Below, piece by piece: positions 3,715 to 48,132 of a stretch of 64,000 bases of DNA (the first letter of the stretch is position 1; each line of letters starts with the position of its first letter). The translations under genes were made by a program, and so were the position numbers. Source of the DNA: Enterobacteria phage GiZh. The stretch lies in the sequence record NC_054903.1; one strand, 5' to 3'. Below the pieces are notes generated by a model. That model was not told the origin of the DNA. It did no database searches and saw only the letters and a program-made list of their open reading frames with translations.

Positions 3715-4071
3715 TTAACCTCTATTCATAAAAGCATTAAAAATTTGGTCATCAATAGATGGAATAGCAACCTTTTCGGCATCATTTAGCAAATCATTAA
3801 TTTCATCAGATAGCATAACACATGTGCCTTTATTTCCTGTAATTGTTACTGCGCAATTACGAACGTTTTCTTTATCAAATTTTAGGTTAATATTTTCGTA
3901 GTGAAAATCCTTTAATGCCGAATATATCTTTAAAATGAAATTGTCTTTTACTACAATAAACCCAACCTCACTATTAAAACGCGGTTCATGGAAACTGTAA
4001 TAAACCTTTTCATCTATAAAATCGTATGAAATTTTTTCCATTTTTAAATATGAAAATTCAGAACTATACAT
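3715..4071 (-). CDS. hypothetical protein (61.1 position)
   Basis: 118 aa; ATG verified; C-terminus SIDDQIFNAFMNRG shared with next gene. Confidence 0.55.
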   Translation of the reverse strand: MYSSEFSYLKMEKISYDFIDEKVYYSFHEPRFNSEVGFIVVKDNFILKIYSALKDFHYENINLKFDKENVRNCAVTITGNKGTCVMLSDEINDLLNDAEKVAIPSIDDQIFNAFMNRG

Positions 4072-4072
4072 A

Positions 4073-4705
4073 TTAACCTTTATTCATAAAAGCATTAAAA
4101 ATTTGATCGTCAATAGAAACTTTTACTTTAGGCTGTTCTTCAAACGGTAATTCATATCCACATATTACAATTTTGTGATCGATACCAAAATACACAGAAG
4201 CAATATTATTAATATTATTTTCAGTGAAATCTAAATCAACATCAATATCTTTTTGACTAACGCTCAAAGGATAATTAATACGAATAATTCGATTATCTTT
4301 AACAAAGATTCCACCGACATACTCTGTGCTGCGTTTAAAGTTTACACGTTTCCTAAATGAAAAATATTCAGGTTCTTTATGCGCTCGACTCATAGGGCTT
4401 AAAGTGTATTCCGAATATGAAATATCAAATCCTACACCTTCAATATGAGCCAAAGTGTCATGATTAAACCAATTATAATCGTATGCCAAATCCATTAAAT
4501 TGTAATATGTGAAAGGCACCGGATTAACATCATATGTTGTACCTTTAAAATCTGCCCAGGCAACGATTTCGTTATCTTTAACAATTACAAAAATTGTGCC
4601 AATAAGATATCCACGGTTATTTTCATCAGGTGTTATATTATAACATTGTGCATCAGGAAATTTACCGTATTTAAACGGTGGATTTTTGTGCATATAATAA
4701 ATCAT
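4073..4705 (-). CDS. hypothetical protein (61.2 position), two internal repeats of a VKDN module
   Basis: 210 aa; ATG verified; GTIFVIVKDNEIV and GGIFVKDNRIIRI modules; C-terminus SIDDQIFNAFMNKG. Confidence 0.55.
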   Translation of the reverse strand: MIYYMHKNPPFKYGKFPDAQCYNITPDENNRGYLIGTIFVIVKDNEIVAWADFKGTTYDVNPVPFTYYNLMDLAYDYNWFNHDTLAHIEGVGFDISYSEYTLSPMSRAHKEPEYFSFRKRVNFKRSTEYVGGIFVKDNRIIRINYPLSVSQKDIDVDLDFTENNINNIASVYFGIDHKIVICGYELPFEEQPKVKVSIDDQIFNAFMNKG

Positions 4706-42850: not shown

Positions 42851-43237
42851 TTATTCGAGGGAAAGAAGATACTTACTCTGGTAAAACATTCCAGTAATAT
42901 CATCTATCGTGCTTTGGATGGCTGGAGGCATTTCTTTATAAATGCTGTTAGATTGGTCTAGTATGTGATCAATCATTTTAATTGTGTCGGTAGGAAGTTT
43001 ACTGGCATCTGGAATTGAAGGCGTGTATTTTCTACCAGAATACCCCAAATATTGCTCACCAAATTTATCAATCAAATCTGGCAACTCGGAGAAAATAAAA
43101 TCGTATGCTTTGTGTCTAGCATAACTTTTAGTTTCAAAATGTGCAGAATGAAAATAAGCTTGTGCAGCCATTAATAAACCTAAGTATTCATCTGCCTTTG
43201 AAGGTTTTCCACTTTGTGAAAAGTCGCTGAATTTCAT
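42851..43237 (-). CDS. hypothetical protein
   Basis: 128-aa ORF, stop just upstream of terminator. Confidence 0.5.
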
Positions 43238-43527
43238 TCAGTCTCCAATTTAATGTTCATAATTCTAGCGTATGATTGTGCCATCTCCGCGCCTCGTTCT
43301 ATACATTCAAAATCAGAAGAGCACGGGTCATTTTTATAGGTCGTTCTCATAAAACTATAGAATTGTTCAGACGATTCTACGCTTTTATTTTCAAAAAGTG
43401 TATAAACGTGCCTAATACCAGATTCCATAAATTTATCAAAATGAGGATCGACATTCGCTTCAATCGATGGAGATAAAACAAATGACAATCCTAGCATGGC
43501 AAAAAGTGCCGTTGCTTTTAAGGCCAT
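43234..43527 (-). CDS. secreted protein
   Basis: 97 aa with signal peptide MALKATALFAMLGLSFVLSPSIEA. Confidence 0.5.
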   Translation of the reverse strand: MALKATALFAMLGLSFVLSPSIEANVDPHFDKFMESGIRHVYTLFENKSVESSEQFYSFMRTTYKNDPCSSDFECIERGAEMAQSYARIMNIKLETE

Positions 43528-43539
43528 AAAGGCCTCCTA

Positions 43540-43752
43540 TCATTTTTGTCCTGTATTTACTTTATGCCGATGCACGGCCTTAACTTTATCAAGGTATTTT
43601 TCAAAATTTCGCAATCTAGTATAGTCTGCCGGAGATTGGTTGAGTGATACTTCTCGACGCAAAGCTGAAATGATATTTCCAACTTCCCTACGAATTTCAT
43701 CTAATTGAAGAACAGTAAGATTGCGAAGTTGCTTTTCAGTTAATTGTAGCAT
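43540..43752 (-). CDS. hypothetical protein
   Basis: 70-aa basic ORF. Confidence 0.45.
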
Positions 43753-43794
43753 ATATACCCCTTTAGTTAGATAAACCTATTTATAACTTTTGCA

Positions 43795-44376
43795 CTAACC
43801 GAGCTTTTTAGTTAATTCATTCCAATGTTTTCTGCACAAAGAAACATAAATTTCATCACCAATACAGATTTGATTACCTTCTTTAACTGGTGTTCCATCT
43901 TCCATTAATCGAGCTGTCATAATCGCTTTTTTGCCGCAATGACAAACTGCCTTTAGTTCAATAAGTTTATCTGCAATCGCTAAAAGTTCTTTAGAACCTT
44001 CAAACAATTTTCCAGCGAAATCAGTCCTTAATCCATAAGCCATAACAGGAACATTATATGTATCAACAATTCGGCTCAATTGATGCACCTGTTCAGTTTT
44101 TAAAAACTGAGCTTCATCTACAAATACGCAATGAATATCTTTTTGTGCTTCAGCCCATTTATAGAACTCGAAAATATCCATATCATCTGTAATAATATTC
44201 GCTTCCTGTTTAATTCCAATGCGAGAAACAACTTCACAGACAGAATCGCGAGTATCAATAGCAGGCTTAAGAACTAATACACTCATTCCACGTTCTTTAT
44301 AATTATGTGCAGCAGTCAAAAGAGAAGCAGATTTTCCAGCATTCATTGCTGCATAAGTAAAAATTAAACTCGCCAT
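43795..44376 (-). CDS. tk: thymidine kinase
   Basis: 193 aa; Walker A AAMNAGKS; C-terminal Zn motif CHCGKK...C; ATG verified. Confidence 0.9.
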   Translation of the reverse strand: MASLIFTYAAMNAGKSASLLTAAHNYKERGMSVLVLKPAIDTRDSVCEVVSRIGIKQEANIITDDMDIFEFYKWAEAQKDIHCVFVDEAQFLKTEQVHQLSRIVDTYNVPVMAYGLRTDFAGKLFEGSKELLAIADKLIELKAVCHCGKKAIMTARLMEDGTPVKEGNQICIGDEIYVSLCRKHWNELTKKLG

Positions 44377-44385
44377 ATCACCTTC

Positions 44386-44571
44386 TTAAAGCGTATTCAC
44401 ATAAGCTATTAATTCATTTTCTTTCTTATCAAACCGATCAGCAAATTCTTCCTGCTGTTCTGGAGATAGCGGGCCGTATTCATCATAAAAGGTGTTTGCT
44501 TCTATATGCTCATCTAGAAGTTCATGGATAAGCTCAAACAATTTATCTTTTTGTTCTTTGCTTAGACTCAC
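44386..44571 (-). CDS. hypothetical protein
   Basis: 61-aa acidic ORF upstream of tk. Confidence 0.45.
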   Translation of the reverse strand: MSLSKEQKDKLFELIHELLDEHIEANTFYDEYGPLSPEQQEEFADRFDKKENELIAYVNTL

Positions 44572-44740
44572 AGTATGTCAATCCCCAAAAGTTTTAAAAT
44601 GACTCGTTTCTGATTCATAACCGCTACGATTGAATGACCGTTGGGGTCTTTTTGACCTGATCCAATTATAAATCCTTTTTGCGCAGAAAGTTCAATCAAA
44701 ACATCAAGTTCACGTAATAATTGATATTTTAAATCATCAT

Positions 44741-44968
44741 TCATTTTGGTTTACCTTCTTTAACGAAATCAGGATAAGGATAAAATCCTGAATAAAATCC
44801 TTCACCTTTATGATTGATGCATCCTTTATTAGAACAATAGCACCAATAATCGAAATCACAAGCCATTTCATCGTTGCATAAAGCAAAAACAACCGGCCAC
44901 TTACACTTTTCACAGTGGGCATTTTTAAGAATACTAGTTTGGCTCATAACCATGTAACCTTTAAGCAA
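44741..44968 (-). CDS. Cys-rich small protein (putative zinc-binding)
   Basis: 75 aa with CEKC...C..C and C..C.C...C..H patterns; competing overlapping frame 44737-44922 not preferred. Confidence 0.4.
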   Translation of the reverse strand: MLKGYMVMSQTSILKNAHCEKCKWPVVFALCNDEMACDFDYWCYCSNKGCINHKGEGFYSGFYPYPDFVKEGKPK

Positions 44969-45156
44969 TATTCTTCTACATGTTGTTTACGACCTTTCTT
45001 ATCAATAAAGGTATATTCAACGAATGTTCCAATGTAGTCTTTATCTACATCATGTGGACTATTAATTGGACATTTAGTACGGCAAATGCGTTCCCATTGA
45101 CGAATAATTACTGCTTTGTTTTTAGGATCAAACGGATGCGGGTAATGTACTTTCAT
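44944..45156 (-). CDS. hypothetical protein
   Basis: 70-aa ORF. Confidence 0.4.
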   Translation of the reverse strand: MKVHYPHPFDPKNKAVIIRQWERICRTKCPINSPHDVDKDYIGTFVEYTFIDKKGRKQHVEEYCLKVTWL

Positions 45157-45607
45157 AATCCACCACTATTAAATCAATATCAGGAGTAAACATGTCGATT
45201 AATTTAGAAACCTTATCCCAATCGCCGCCAGCAATACCACAACCTATGCGTGGAATGTAAATTACCGGTTTAAACAAAAGGGTTTCTGCCTGTAGATTTA
45301 ATTCTATCATGCAGTTTACTAAAGCACCATAATCAAGATTAGGACCTGGTTCGTATTGCGTATACAAGTTATAACATATGCCAAAACCATTAGGTTTATG
45401 TTTAAAAACAATAGACATATCGCCTAATTTATCACGAGAACCGTACTCAGTAGTGGTTTTATCTATTTCTAAAATTTTGGGATAGGCTCTTGCTAATTGA
45501 CCCGCTACACCTGAACCCATAGTATGAAAACAATTGCACCCGTGCGCAATAATATTACCTTGAAGAAATAGGGCGACAATATCGCCCTTGATATATTTTG
45601 CAATCAT
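45128..45607 (-). CDS. macro domain protein (ADP-ribose binding/processing)
   Basis: 159 aa; Gly-rich motifs NCFHTMGSGVAGQL and IGCGIAGGDW typical of macro domains. Confidence 0.6.
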   Translation of the reverse strand: MIAKYIKGDIVALFLQGNIIAHGCNCFHTMGSGVAGQLARAYPKILEIDKTTTEYGSRDKLGDMSIVFKHKPNGFGICYNLYTQYEPGPNLDYGALVNCMIELNLQAETLLFKPVIYIPRIGCGIAGGDWDKVSKLIDMFTPDIDLIVVDYESTLPASV

Positions 45608-45945
45608 CTAGTACTCAATCCTCGATTATAAGAATCTACCAAACGGTCAACCATTGAATGACAAGCGGCTTTATCTTTCTCCTCCGCAACTGAACATTCT
45701 AAGGTATTCCACTTTTTAGCATATCGTTTTAATAATGTATCGTTTTTGTATCTACTTGATTTATCTCTTTCTCCGTCTTTATATGCATATATTAATTTCT
45801 GCGCAAATTCAGCTTGGCATGCTTTATTTTTCCCGCAATAATCCGCTGCAGTACGGTTTACATACTCTCTAATTTCAGTATATGATGTATCTGCTAACGC
45901 AGAAAATGAAATTAATCCTATACATAAAACCAAAATTTTAGTCAT
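45604..45945 (-). CDS. secreted Cys-containing protein
   Basis: 113 aa; signal peptide MTKILVLCIGLISFSALA. Confidence 0.5.
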   Translation of the reverse strand: MTKILVLCIGLISFSALADTSYTEIREYVNRTAADYCGKNKACQAEFAQKLIYAYKDGERDKSSRYKNDTLLKRYAKKWNTLECSVAEEKDKAACHSMVDRLVDSYNRGLSTR

Positions 45946-46483
45946 TTACTATTTCCAAAAGTTTATTATTTTTAAGGTAATTAGCCTTTTCTAGGACTTC
46001 AGAAGCATATTTAGAACCTGCTTTAACATTCCATCCCGAATTATAAGAGGATATTGCTTTTCTTATATCGCCCTTATGTATATTTAACCAATAAGAAAGT
46101 TCAATGTACGCCCAGGAAGCTGAATTGGATCGTTTATTCAACATTCTTTTTATTTCAGCATCGGTCATATTATAACCAAGTTCCTTAACTCTTGCTCGCA
46201 TAGTAGGCAAATAATTTTGGAACATTCCATAAGCGTGATGCTTTGGTTTAGATTTTAAATTAACTCCGCCAGAGCTTTCTTGCCATAAAATAGCAGCCAT
46301 TATATGACCTAATCCGCTCTTGTGGATATTTTTGTGTGTTTTATATTTTCCATCCTTAGAAAACTGTTCCCCGAATTGATACGCGTAACGCATGTTATCG
46401 AGTTGGACATTACTGAAAGTATGCTCGGAGCTATGTGCCATCATTGAAATGGCCAATAGACCAGCGAGTAGTGCTTTTCTCAT
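45938..46483 (-). CDS. putative secreted lytic transglycosylase (SLT-like)
   Basis: 181 aa; signal peptide MRKALLAGLLAISMMAHS; catalytic-type ILWQESSGG and downstream YGMFQ. Confidence 0.5.
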   Translation of the reverse strand: MRKALLAGLLAISMMAHSSEHTFSNVQLDNMRYAYQFGEQFSKDGKYKTHKNIHKSGLGHIMAAILWQESSGGVNLKSKPKHHAYGMFQNYLPTMRARVKELGYNMTDAEIKRMLNKRSNSASWAYIELSYWLNIHKGDIRKAISSYNSGWNVKAGSKYASEVLEKANYLKNNKLLEIVND

Positions 46484-46490
46484 GCTTACC

Positions 46491-46952
46491 TCATTGAGTT
46501 TTAATTACTGCTTTAGAAGCCTTTCCTGGTAAACGACGACTGTTGATAATTGCCATCCTGCATTGAAGTGACGGGTTTTTGAACTTCTCATTAGGCTTAC
46601 AAACCGTAAATCCAAGCCAAAGATTTCCATCTGTGATTTCTAAACGTCCAGGACGATATTCAACCCCATCAATAAAATCCTCGTCAATGTCAGGACGCGG
46701 AGGCATACTCAGGAATTCATTAACTTCTAAAACATGGTCTTTTATTTTATGGAATAATTCAAAAACATATGTCTCATCAATCTCCCGTTGAATTGCACGA
46801 TCAAGAAGATGCTGAGAATATTTTAGATGAAACGATGAGACCCCTGCTGCTTTTGATGCCTCACGAATCTCATTGTTAATTTGACGAAACTCCGACTCAA
46901 AATGACGACGAAGCTTATTTCGACGGATAAAAACTTCTGTGTTGATAGTCAT
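46491..46952 (-). CDS. regB: endoribonuclease RegB
   Basis: 153 aa, size and position as T4 regB; early promoter immediately upstream; ATG verified. Confidence 0.7.
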   Translation of the reverse strand: MTINTEVFIRRNKLRRHFESEFRQINNEIREASKAAGVSSFHLKYSQHLLDRAIQREIDETYVFELFHKIKDHVLEVNEFLSMPPRPDIDEDFIDGVEYRPGRLEITDGNLWLGFTVCKPNEKFKNPSLQCRMAIINSRRLPGKASKAVIKTQ

Positions 46953-46979
46953 GTTATTCTCCTCTTAACTGATAGAAAA

Positions 46980-47010
46980 ATTATACCACAGTCAAGAGGA
47001 AAAGTAAACA
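46980..47010 (-). promoter_or_regulatory. T4-type early promoter upstream of regB
   Basis: minus strand GTTTACT, 17 nt, TATAAT. Confidence 0.55.
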
Positions 47011-47011
47011 G

Positions 47012-47332
47012 TTATTCTTTAAATCTAATCAATTTATTCATAGACTTTGAAACTTCTGCACGAACCTCACGTAAGTTTTTAAGCTGTTCAAGACGCTGCT
47101 CATAGTAAGCAATTTCATCTTCTTCGAGACAGTCCTGTGAATCTTCTTTAAGATAACGTGCATAGTCCTGAAAAGCTTTACGGACTACTTCCTGAAAGTC
47201 ATCAAGACTTTGAATTTTCTTAGGAGCGGCAGATACACGACGAGGTGCAGTATAATACTCATAACCAAACCCTGCACTTAATTGAGCCATTAGTATTTTT
47301 CCTCTGGTTGGAACACTGCACGACAAGCCCAC
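47012..47332 (-). CDS. hypothetical protein (vs.3 position)
   Basis: 106-aa ORF. Confidence 0.45.
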
Positions 47333-47592
47333 ATACTGGCTTCTTTGAGTTTCGTTTTAGCAATAGTTAACTGATCGAGGCTTTCAGCGTAATTCTTCGC
47401 GAGTTCATCATCTTCACAGCTATCAAATGCTTCCCAAAATTCATCGTATAAAGCATCAAAGATAAGTCCTAAACGAACTTCAGCGTCTTTAATAGCATTT
47501 ACTTTACCGATTTTTTCGTCGGTATGCGGCTTATAACCTTTAATATCTTCAATCATATTTGACTTCCTCACCAGTGCATAAATCATATTCAA
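47290..47592 (-). CDS. hypothetical protein (vs.4 position; possible Acb2-type cyclic-nucleotide sponge)
   Basis: 100-aa ORF; call by synteny with T4 vs.4 only. Confidence 0.35.
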
Positions 47593-47770
47593 CTAAACGA
47601 ATAGGTTCATGAATGCCATATCCTTGAACAGAAATTTCTGTCGTAGGATAAATTCCATCAATATCACCCATATTCCAGGCTTCATTAAATTGCTGTTCGC
47701 CTGAATTACTAAACCACTCGGCGAAAGCATTTAGCACATCTTTAGAACCTTCAATAATTATCTTTGCCAT
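47549..47770 (-). CDS. hypothetical protein
   Basis: 73-aa ORF. Confidence 0.45.
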   Translation of the reverse strand: MAKIIIEGSKDVLNAFAEWFSNSGEQQFNEAWNMGDIDGIYPTTEISVQGYGIHEPIRLVEYDLCTGEEVKYD

Positions 47771-48132
47771 TACAAACTCTCGGTGAAGGTACGAGCGATA
47801 ACGTCGCGCTGCTGTTCCGGAGTCAGAGAATTAAAGCGAACTGCATAACCTGATACACGGATGGTCAGCTGCGGATATTTTTCCGGATGCTTAACTGCAT
47901 CTTCCAGAGTTTCACGACGCAGAACGTTAACGTTCAGGTGTTGACCACCTTCAATTTTAACTGTAGGCTGTGGTTCAATTTCAATTTCACGGGCATGCAA
48001 ACCGTAGAAAATTTCTGGGTCTACAAAAGAGTCCTCTTTAAAGGTTTTAGAGACAATAATTCGTGCTTGAATACCATCTTCAAAATAAATAGTACCTTTA
48101 TGTGTGCCTTCAAGAATTTGATATGCTTTCAT
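47770..48132 (-). CDS. autonomous glycyl radical cofactor (GrcA/YfiD-like)
   Basis: 120 aa; C-terminal glycyl radical motif [25 protein letters not shown]. Confidence 0.75.

Follow-up and report, generated by a model that had tools for sequence, protein, structure and literature searches.

Organization of the tk-regB block

The window, i.e., the whole 64,000-nucleotide stretch of Enterobacteria phage GiZh DNA analysed here, carries a tk.4-like gene between the genes for thymidine kinase (tk) and RegB (Table 1). Read along the minus strand, the gene order is regB, vs.1, vs, the tk.4-like gene, tk.3, small ORFs and tk, and the interval between tk and RegB holds tk.1-tk.3-like ORFs, the tk.4-like ORF, vs and vs.1. 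The order tk.3/tk.4/vs/vs.1/regB is identical in T4, where tk.4 itself holds the slot. A first-pass annotation of this DNA had placed a macro domain gene in a “tk-regB block”, and this context is correct, with tk and RegB flanking the gene on its own strand in the T4 gene order. The 3-kb stretch around the gene is 99.2% identical to Shigella phage A2, a Tequatrovirus, and phage records give 462 matches to it of nearly full length; the window can be assigned to a T4-like phage. No darT adjoins the tk.4-like gene, the neighbours of which are vs and tk.3. A promoter scan of 43700-47100 returned 10 sites against 13.6 expected and thus carries no information, and an Rfam search of 43000-48000 at E ≤ 1 gave no match.

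Table 1. Features of the tk.4-like gene and its surroundings (positions in the window).
Feature	Position	Strand	Basis or remark
Thymidine kinase	43795-44376	-	same strand as tk.4-like gene
69-aa ORF overlapping the tk.4-like gene	44980-45189	+	one of several plus-strand ORFs there
Island divergent from T4 (C-terminal three quarters of gene)	45121-45480		per-bin identity
tk.4/adfM-like gene, stand-alone macro domain protein, 159 aa	45128-45607	-	ATG-to-stop ORF
29-nt overlap, tk.4-like 3' end with tk.3-like ORF start	45128-45156	-	ORF coordinates; DNA alignment with T4
Gly-rich loop 2, phosphate-binding, P119 to W130, PRIGCGIAGGDW	45218-45253	-	P119, G122, G124, W130 invariant
N80-L-Y-T-Q84 strand end	45356-45370	-	N80, Y82, Q84 invariant in 64/64 homologues
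Gly-rich loop 1, M30 to G36 (MGSGVAG)	45500-45520	-	M30, G31, G33, A35 invariant or nearly so
H22-G23-C24-N25-C26 motif	45530-45544	-	H22, G23, N25, C26 invariant in 64 homologues
ATGA overlap, vs stop with tk.4-like start codon	45604-45607	-	sequence read and ORF coordinates
RegB	46491-46952	-	same strand as tk.4-like gene

The tk.4-like ORF runs complete from ATG to stop, and the macro-domain gene is real and intact. Its coordinates are exactly those of the first-pass annotation, which had given no strand; the gene lies on the minus strand. This minus-strand gene accounts for the region, the plus-strand ORFs notwithstanding. The ATGA shared by the vs stop and the tk.4-like start codon is likewise there in T4, and it would couple the translation of the two genes as in T4. 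At the opposite end, the overlap with the tk.3-like ORF exists because of a 13-nt deletion relative to T4 (columns 959-971 of the pairwise DNA alignment), with four residues added at the C-terminus.

As for the neighbouring Vs.1 (181 aa, 45938-46483, minus strand), its N-terminus is signal-peptide-like, and tail and endolysin PHROGs of the lytic transglycosylase type match it weakly. It is annotated as an SLT domain protein in Shigella phage A2 and as “hypothetical” in T4.

The tk.4-like protein is an ALC1/TARG1-like macro domain

Among macro domains, the tk.4-like protein falls into the ALC1/TARG1-like class. The Pfam Macro profile (PF01661) matches it with 33.1 bits (E = 6e-8) over profile positions 2-117 of 118, above the curated cut-off of 22, and PHROG 335, the same PHROG as that of T4 Tk.4, matches with E = 1e-70. 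An AlphaFold2 model computed with 64 homologues is confident (pLDDT 93.4, pTM 0.88) and displays a three-layer alpha/beta/alpha fold with a mixed central beta-sheet. The profile match and the predicted fold thus bear out the macro domain proposed in the first-pass annotation, and the two Gly-rich motifs that it had pointed to are both present and conserved across the 64 homologues.

Sequence and profile searches of the PDB returned BT1257 (4e-20), human TARG1 (1.5e-16), SCO6735 (2.7e-15), yeast Poa1p (3e-15) and DarG (1e-11), and the top Foldseek match is human TARG1/OARD1 (E = 9e-10, TM 0.72-0.82). The closest neighbours are therefore TARG1, DarG and SCO6735/BT1257, not MacroD, PARG or viral macro domains. 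The macro-domain match is far beyond chance: at E ≤ 1e-5, homologues are encoded in 2767 of 50,697 phage records, and 771 protein clusters pass the same threshold. The hosts of these phages include Escherichia, Klebsiella, Salmonella, Pseudomonas, Vibrio and Acinetobacter, besides those of other phages, and bacteria encode homologues too. In the one bacterial case checked, a Pelagimonas homologue (P0088), no DarT or other defence gene lies near, so that genomic context provides no independent link to DarT. One Microbacterium phage carries a 30%-identical Tk.4 homologue under a gene annotated “ADP-ribosyltransferase”, which is either a mis-annotated macro domain or a writer-eraser fusion.

Conserved motifs and a glutamine at the catalytic position

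In the alignment of the 64 homologues, 14 positions are invariant (H22, G23, N25, C26, G33, A35, D49, N80, Y82, Q84, P119, G122, G124 and W130), and all 14 are present in the window allele. Within the N-terminal H-G-C-N-C motif, N25 is the conserved active-site Asn, which pairs with that of “TVNCVG” in DarG and is equivalent to SCO6735 Asn27 and PhiKZ AdfM N23. The motif as a whole is most like that of Poa1p, for which an H23A mutant structure exists, and we take H22 to correspond to Poa1p His23. Gly-rich loop 1, opposite which TARG1 has MGAGIA and DarG has MGKGIA, is predicted to be the first ADP-ribose/diphosphate-binding loop of macro domains. Gly-rich loop 2 represents the family consensus and, reading PRIGCGIAGG here, is near-identical to PRIGCGLAGG of BT1257 (2FG1) and SCO6735 (5E3B). 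The two loops (residues 30-36 and 119-130) would grip ADP-ribose at its diphosphate and its distal ribose.

Q84 sits where DarG (K80) and TARG1 (K84) have their catalytic Lys. The HMMER profile alignment to TARG1 places T83-Q84 opposite T-K, and hhalign against a four-sequence DarG-type profile places T83-Q84 opposite the T-K of PTKK, with Q84-Y85 opposite K-K. In addition, Q84 aligns with the Gln of the BT1257 “IGQH”, and its SCO6735 equivalent is Gln85. Residues 80-92 include neither Lys nor Arg, so none can be brought to this position in any alignment register, and the catalytic lysine is absent from the Tk.4 family. In loop 2, A126 lies opposite TARG1 Asp125, the Asp of GCGLD in the TARG1 loop PRIGCGLDRLQW.

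The catalytic register was taken from the HMMER/TARG1 alignment and the hhalign alignment to the DarG-type profile, which agree on Q84. When the family profile was aligned by hhalign to the single PhiKZ gp104 sequence, Y82 came to lie opposite the Lys, a two-residue shift within a low-confidence stretch, and a seven-sequence MAFFT alignment has a gap at the catalytic position; neither of these two alignments was relied on. The DarG sequences in the MAFFT alignment and in the DarG-type profile were rebuilt from printed pairwise alignments, and we infer that a tag offsets the DarG PDB chains by 10 residues. For TARG1, the full-length sequence in the MAFFT alignment and the K84/D125 numbering are consistent with the published residues (PMC9411070).

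Comparison with related macro domain proteins

SCO6735 of Streptomyces coelicolor (5E3B) and BT1257 (2FG1/2AFC), two Gln-type ALC1-like proteins that are 54% identical to each other (PMC9411070), have the Gln, the Asn and the PRIGCG[IL]AGG loop in common with the window protein, yet they are bacterial and only 26-29% identical to this phage protein. SCO6735 removes DarT-made thymidine-ADP-ribose from DNA, faster than DarG or TARG1 does; its Q85A mutant is inactive and N27S nearly so, and a water-mediated mechanism has been proposed in which the catalytic water is held by the Val25 backbone and Asn27 positions Gln85 (PMC9411070). The equivalent of SCO6735 Gly128 in the window protein is the invariant G124. 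However, the mobile loop of SCO6735, five residues longer than in DarG and TARG1 and bearing the DNA-binding Lys89 and Lys93, is missing here; BT1257 likewise has a six-residue insertion relative to the Tk.4 family profile, whereas the window loop, YEPGPNLD, is without Lys. Moreover, Val25 of SCO6735 (Ile in BT1257), two residues before the Asn, is the invariant Gly23 in the window protein. Because the role proposed for Val25 uses the backbone, Gly23 does not exclude a SCO6735-type mechanism.

The catalytic residues are Lys84/Asp125 in TARG1 and Lys80 in Thermus aquaticus DarG, and the macro domain of ALC1, too, typically has Gln where these two have their catalytic Lys (PMC9411070). DarG, the antitoxin of DarTG2 (5M3I, 5M31, 7OMU), thus has Lys80 where the window protein has Gln84. 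The NCBIfam DarG model (NF048014) scores the window protein at 27.1 bits against a cut-off of 250, over positions 3-142 of 338, and the PADLOC DarG model gives 27.1 bits compared with 132.9 for PhiKZ gp104; the DarG models match the macro part only, and the C-terminal DarT-binding domain is absent. Having no DarT-binding domain, no darT neighbour and a low DarG score, the window protein is not a DarG family member. Human TARG1/OARD1 (4J5R/4J5S) has the same loop length after the catalytic position and aligns without a gap, but its Lys84/Asp125 dyad is replaced by Gln84/Ala126 in the window protein. TARG1 is likewise reported to reverse DarT thymidine ADP-ribosylation (PMC8501950).

Yeast Poa1p (6LFQ-6LFU) is an ADP-ribose-1''-phosphate phosphatase, the substrate of which is a metabolite and not DNA, and its alignment to the window protein splits in two. 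Where Gln follows the conserved Thr in the window protein, Poa1p presumably has Ser, and it would also carry a long insertion ahead of its second Gly-rich loop.

The gene is a divergent allele of T4 tk.4

The window protein is 57% identical to T4 Tk.4 (NP_049723) over 155 aa (E = 4e-69), the two being 159 and 155 aa long, and all family-invariant residues, including H22, N25 and Q84, are common to both. The gene is a divergent allele, the allelic counterpart of T4 tk.4. Within the divergence island, identity to T4 amounts to 38-73% per 60-nt bin, whereas the flanks (tk.3 on one side, vs/vs.1/regB on the other) are 93-100% identical, and megablast aligns the gene to T4 over its 5' 146 nt only (~85% identical). 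Judged by the DNA alignment, the island represents an allele replacement with sharp borders. The phosphate-binding loop is among the differences, with GCGIAGGDW, the family consensus, in the window allele and GAGIGKGNW in T4.

The window allele is at least as frequent as that of T4 in sequenced T4-like phages. Approximately 311 phage records have it at ≥90% protein identity and a further 109 have a protein 60-80% identical to it, compared with 221 records for the T4 allele (≥95%) and 159 with a protein 80-90% identical to that of T4. The alleles seem to form at least two groups, perhaps four, namely the window and T4 types and two further ones, ~84% identical to T4 and ~75% identical to the window type, respectively. 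From its sequence, there is no reason to think the window allele less functional than its T4 counterpart. The tk.4 locus is a local allele-exchange hot spot in T4-like phages, as would be expected of an arms-race gene.

Two further observations concern the DNA in and beside the gene. A terminator-like hairpin, GGGCGAUAUUGUCGCCC, with a U-rich tract after it, lies at 45570-45588 on the minus (coding) strand, 20-40 nt into the tk.4-like coding sequence and within the part of the gene that is conserved in DNA between the alleles; its stem is identical in T4, a “terminator” under the tk.4-like gene is annotated in some GenBank records, and the fold of the 61-nt stretch (-14.3 kcal/mol, z = -2.06) is only modestly better than that of shuffled sequences. 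The tk.1/tk.2 slot (44377-44942), directly beside the tk.4 allele swap, also differs from T4 and forms a second mosaic module: the region of the tk.1-like ORF is ~68% identical, and 44571-44942 gives no alignment to T4 whatsoever. The latter stretch holds two ORFs to which no function is assigned, one of 58 aa (phrog_3452) and a Cys-rich one of 75 aa at 44741-44968 (phrog_2306) that displays C-x2-C and C-x-C patterns.

Proposed function in countering DarT2

T-even phages were earlier shown to be DarTG2-resistant through an unidentified factor (PMC11257639). In a T4 transposon library grown on a DarTG2 host, tk.4 was the single significant hit, a clean tk.4 knockout was sensitised to DarTG2, and the gene was named adfM; removal of ADP-ribose from DNA was proposed in the same 2025 preprint, the evidence being genetic (bioRxiv 10.1101/2025.11.20.689424). 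The first-pass annotation had suggested a candidate counter-defence function, possibly the reversal of ADP-ribosylation-based defences. The T4 gene in the same slot provides just such a case, and because of the tk.4 preprint the macro-domain and counter-defence reading is both supported and already known. The finding itself is an ordinary one: hundreds of GenBank phage records already annotate the gene as a macro domain protein or “phosphatase”, and genetic work has characterised its T4 counterpart.

We propose that the window protein is most likely, with a probability of roughly 68%, a thymidine DNA ADP-ribosylglycohydrolase that counters DarT2 in the manner of an orphan antitoxin and whose active site would rely on Gln instead of Lys. 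On this proposal, the gene would be expressed from the same leftward transcription unit as vs, its start coupled to the vs stop. Host DarT2 would ADP-ribosylate thymidines in single-stranded phage DNA and thereby block replication; the tk.4-like protein would hold the ADP-ribose between its two Gly-rich loops and hydrolyse the thymidine-ribose bond, restoring replicable DNA and acting as an “orphan antitoxin”. As in the mechanism put forward for SCO6735, Gln84, held by Asn25, may orient the distal ribose so that an activated water can attack it; since the catalytic lysine is lacking, the chemistry is probably not that of DarG. By analogy with T4, we infer the same target and catalysis for the 57%-identical window allele.

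Several points count against this proposal. The window allele is only 57% identical to the genetically tested T4 protein, for which a preprint provides the evidence, all of it genetic. The family has neither the Lys (Q84) nor the Asp (A126) of TARG1 and DarG, and the long mobile loop and Val25 of SCO6735, tied to its mechanism and its high activity on DNA, are absent. The Gln at this site is shared with the ALC1 macro domain, which binds poly-ADP-ribose without hydrolysing it. Finally, the DarG models give 27 bits against 250, and no DarT lies beside the bacterial homologue.

The protein might instead neutralise DarT2 without catalysis, either as an inhibitor that binds the toxin or through attachment to ADP-ribosylated DNA, which we regard as improbable. 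The catalytically dead mutants SCO6735 Q85A, DarG K80A and TARG1 K84A do inhibit DarT by interaction, SCO6735 most of all (PMC9411070), the Tk.4 family is without the Lys/Asp catalytic residues and shares its Gln with ALC1 homologues, and a sharp allele replacement would fit co-evolution with a protein partner. Yet the family counterparts of the residues on which SCO6735 hydrolysis depends (Q84 for Gln85, N25 for Asn27 and G124 for Gly128) are all invariant, the protein ends at 159 aa with no DarT-binding C-terminal domain, and mere binding of the modified DNA would leave replication blocked. Removal of ADP-ribose from protein or RNA, where the marks would come from the phage's own Alt, ModA and ModB or from other ADP-ribosylating defence toxins, is to be given a similarly low probability. 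SCO6735 and TARG1 also remove Glu/Asp-linked mono-ADP-ribose from protein (PMC9411070). The near-identical Shigella phage A2 carries a ModB-like ADP-ribosyltransferase that, seen in A2 only, projects to approximately the start of the window. However, the only recorded tk.4 phenotype concerns DarTG2, a modifier of thymidine in DNA. The Alt and Mod enzymes of T4 modify arginine, and ALC1-like macro domains are, to our knowledge, not known to cleave arginine ADP-ribose.

A purely metabolic enzyme, acting on ADP-ribose-1''-phosphate or O-acetyl-ADP-ribose with no part in defence, would accord with the historical “A1pp phosphatase” label, but we consider it quite improbable. In T4, the gene occupying the slot shows a specific phenotype with DarTG2, and such side activities in vitro are common among macro domains and do not amount to a physiological role. 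T4 RNA repair leaves no 2'-phosphate junction, and we know of no phage pathway that makes ADP-ribose-1''-phosphate. Destruction or sequestration of an ADP-ribose-derived immune signal, such as the gcADPR of Thoeris, is most improbable: the sequence and structure searches gave no closer similarity to any signal-binding protein, the nearest neighbours all being glycohydrolases or phosphatases, and the tk.4/DarT literature covered describes no such tk.4 phenotype. Accordingly, the removal of signalling nucleotides, which the first-pass annotation had also put forward, finds no support.

The Tk.4 family may constitute a third mechanistic type in the ALC1-like class, defined by the Gln, the short loop and Gly23, with its alleles as specificity variants, although we hold this to be speculative and on balance unlikely. 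If true, selection would maintain the sharply bounded alleles, which circulate together in T4-like phages that are otherwise near-identical, as a match to different host DarT2 toxins or to other nucleic-acid ADP-ribosyltransferases, and the tk.4 slot would be a swappable counter-defence cassette, not a fixed housekeeping function.

Two phage proteins named AdfM, and gene nomenclature

PhiKZ gp104 was independently named AdfM in a 2026 paper; it strips DarT2-made ADP-ribose off DNA in vitro, and its N23A mutant has reduced activity (PMC13309987). PhiKZ gp104 keeps FPTK and matches Mycobacterium tuberculosis DarG at E = 9e-25, and the DarG model scores it at 133 bits as against 27-36 bits for T4 Tk.4. 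Judging from these comparisons, T4 Tk.4 (Gln-type) and PhiKZ gp104 (DarG-type), both called AdfM, belong to different subfamilies. The collision of names could mislead annotation, and because Gln replaces the DarG catalytic Lys, the chemistry of the T4-type AdfM needs a study of its own. In GenBank, tk.4-like genes go by “macro domain containing protein”, “phosphatase” or “hypothetical protein”, and the T4 tk.4 record carries the note “contains A1pp phosphatase motif”. The label “phosphatase” is probably misleading, and “AdfM-like anti-DarT2 macro domain” fits better.

Other genes in the window

The ORF at 47290-47592 (minus strand) is the counterpart of T4 vs.4, in a region 82-100% identical in nucleotides per 60-nt bin. 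Vs.4 we take to be Acb2, the anti-CBASS cyclic-nucleotide sponge; if so, the tk-regB-vs block would hold at least two counter-defence genes. Elsewhere in the window, a 210-aa ORF at 4073-4705 (minus strand), starting with MIYYMHKNPPFK, resembles the anti-DarT1 factor 61.2/AdfA of T4; MHKNAPFK is encoded by the primer used to clone RB69 adfA. If this ORF is indeed AdfA-like, the window would counter both DarTG1 and DarTG2. It is adjoined by a 118-aa ORF at 3715-4071 (minus strand) that looks like a partial paralogue, the C-terminal SIDDQIFNAFMN[RK]G being common to both.
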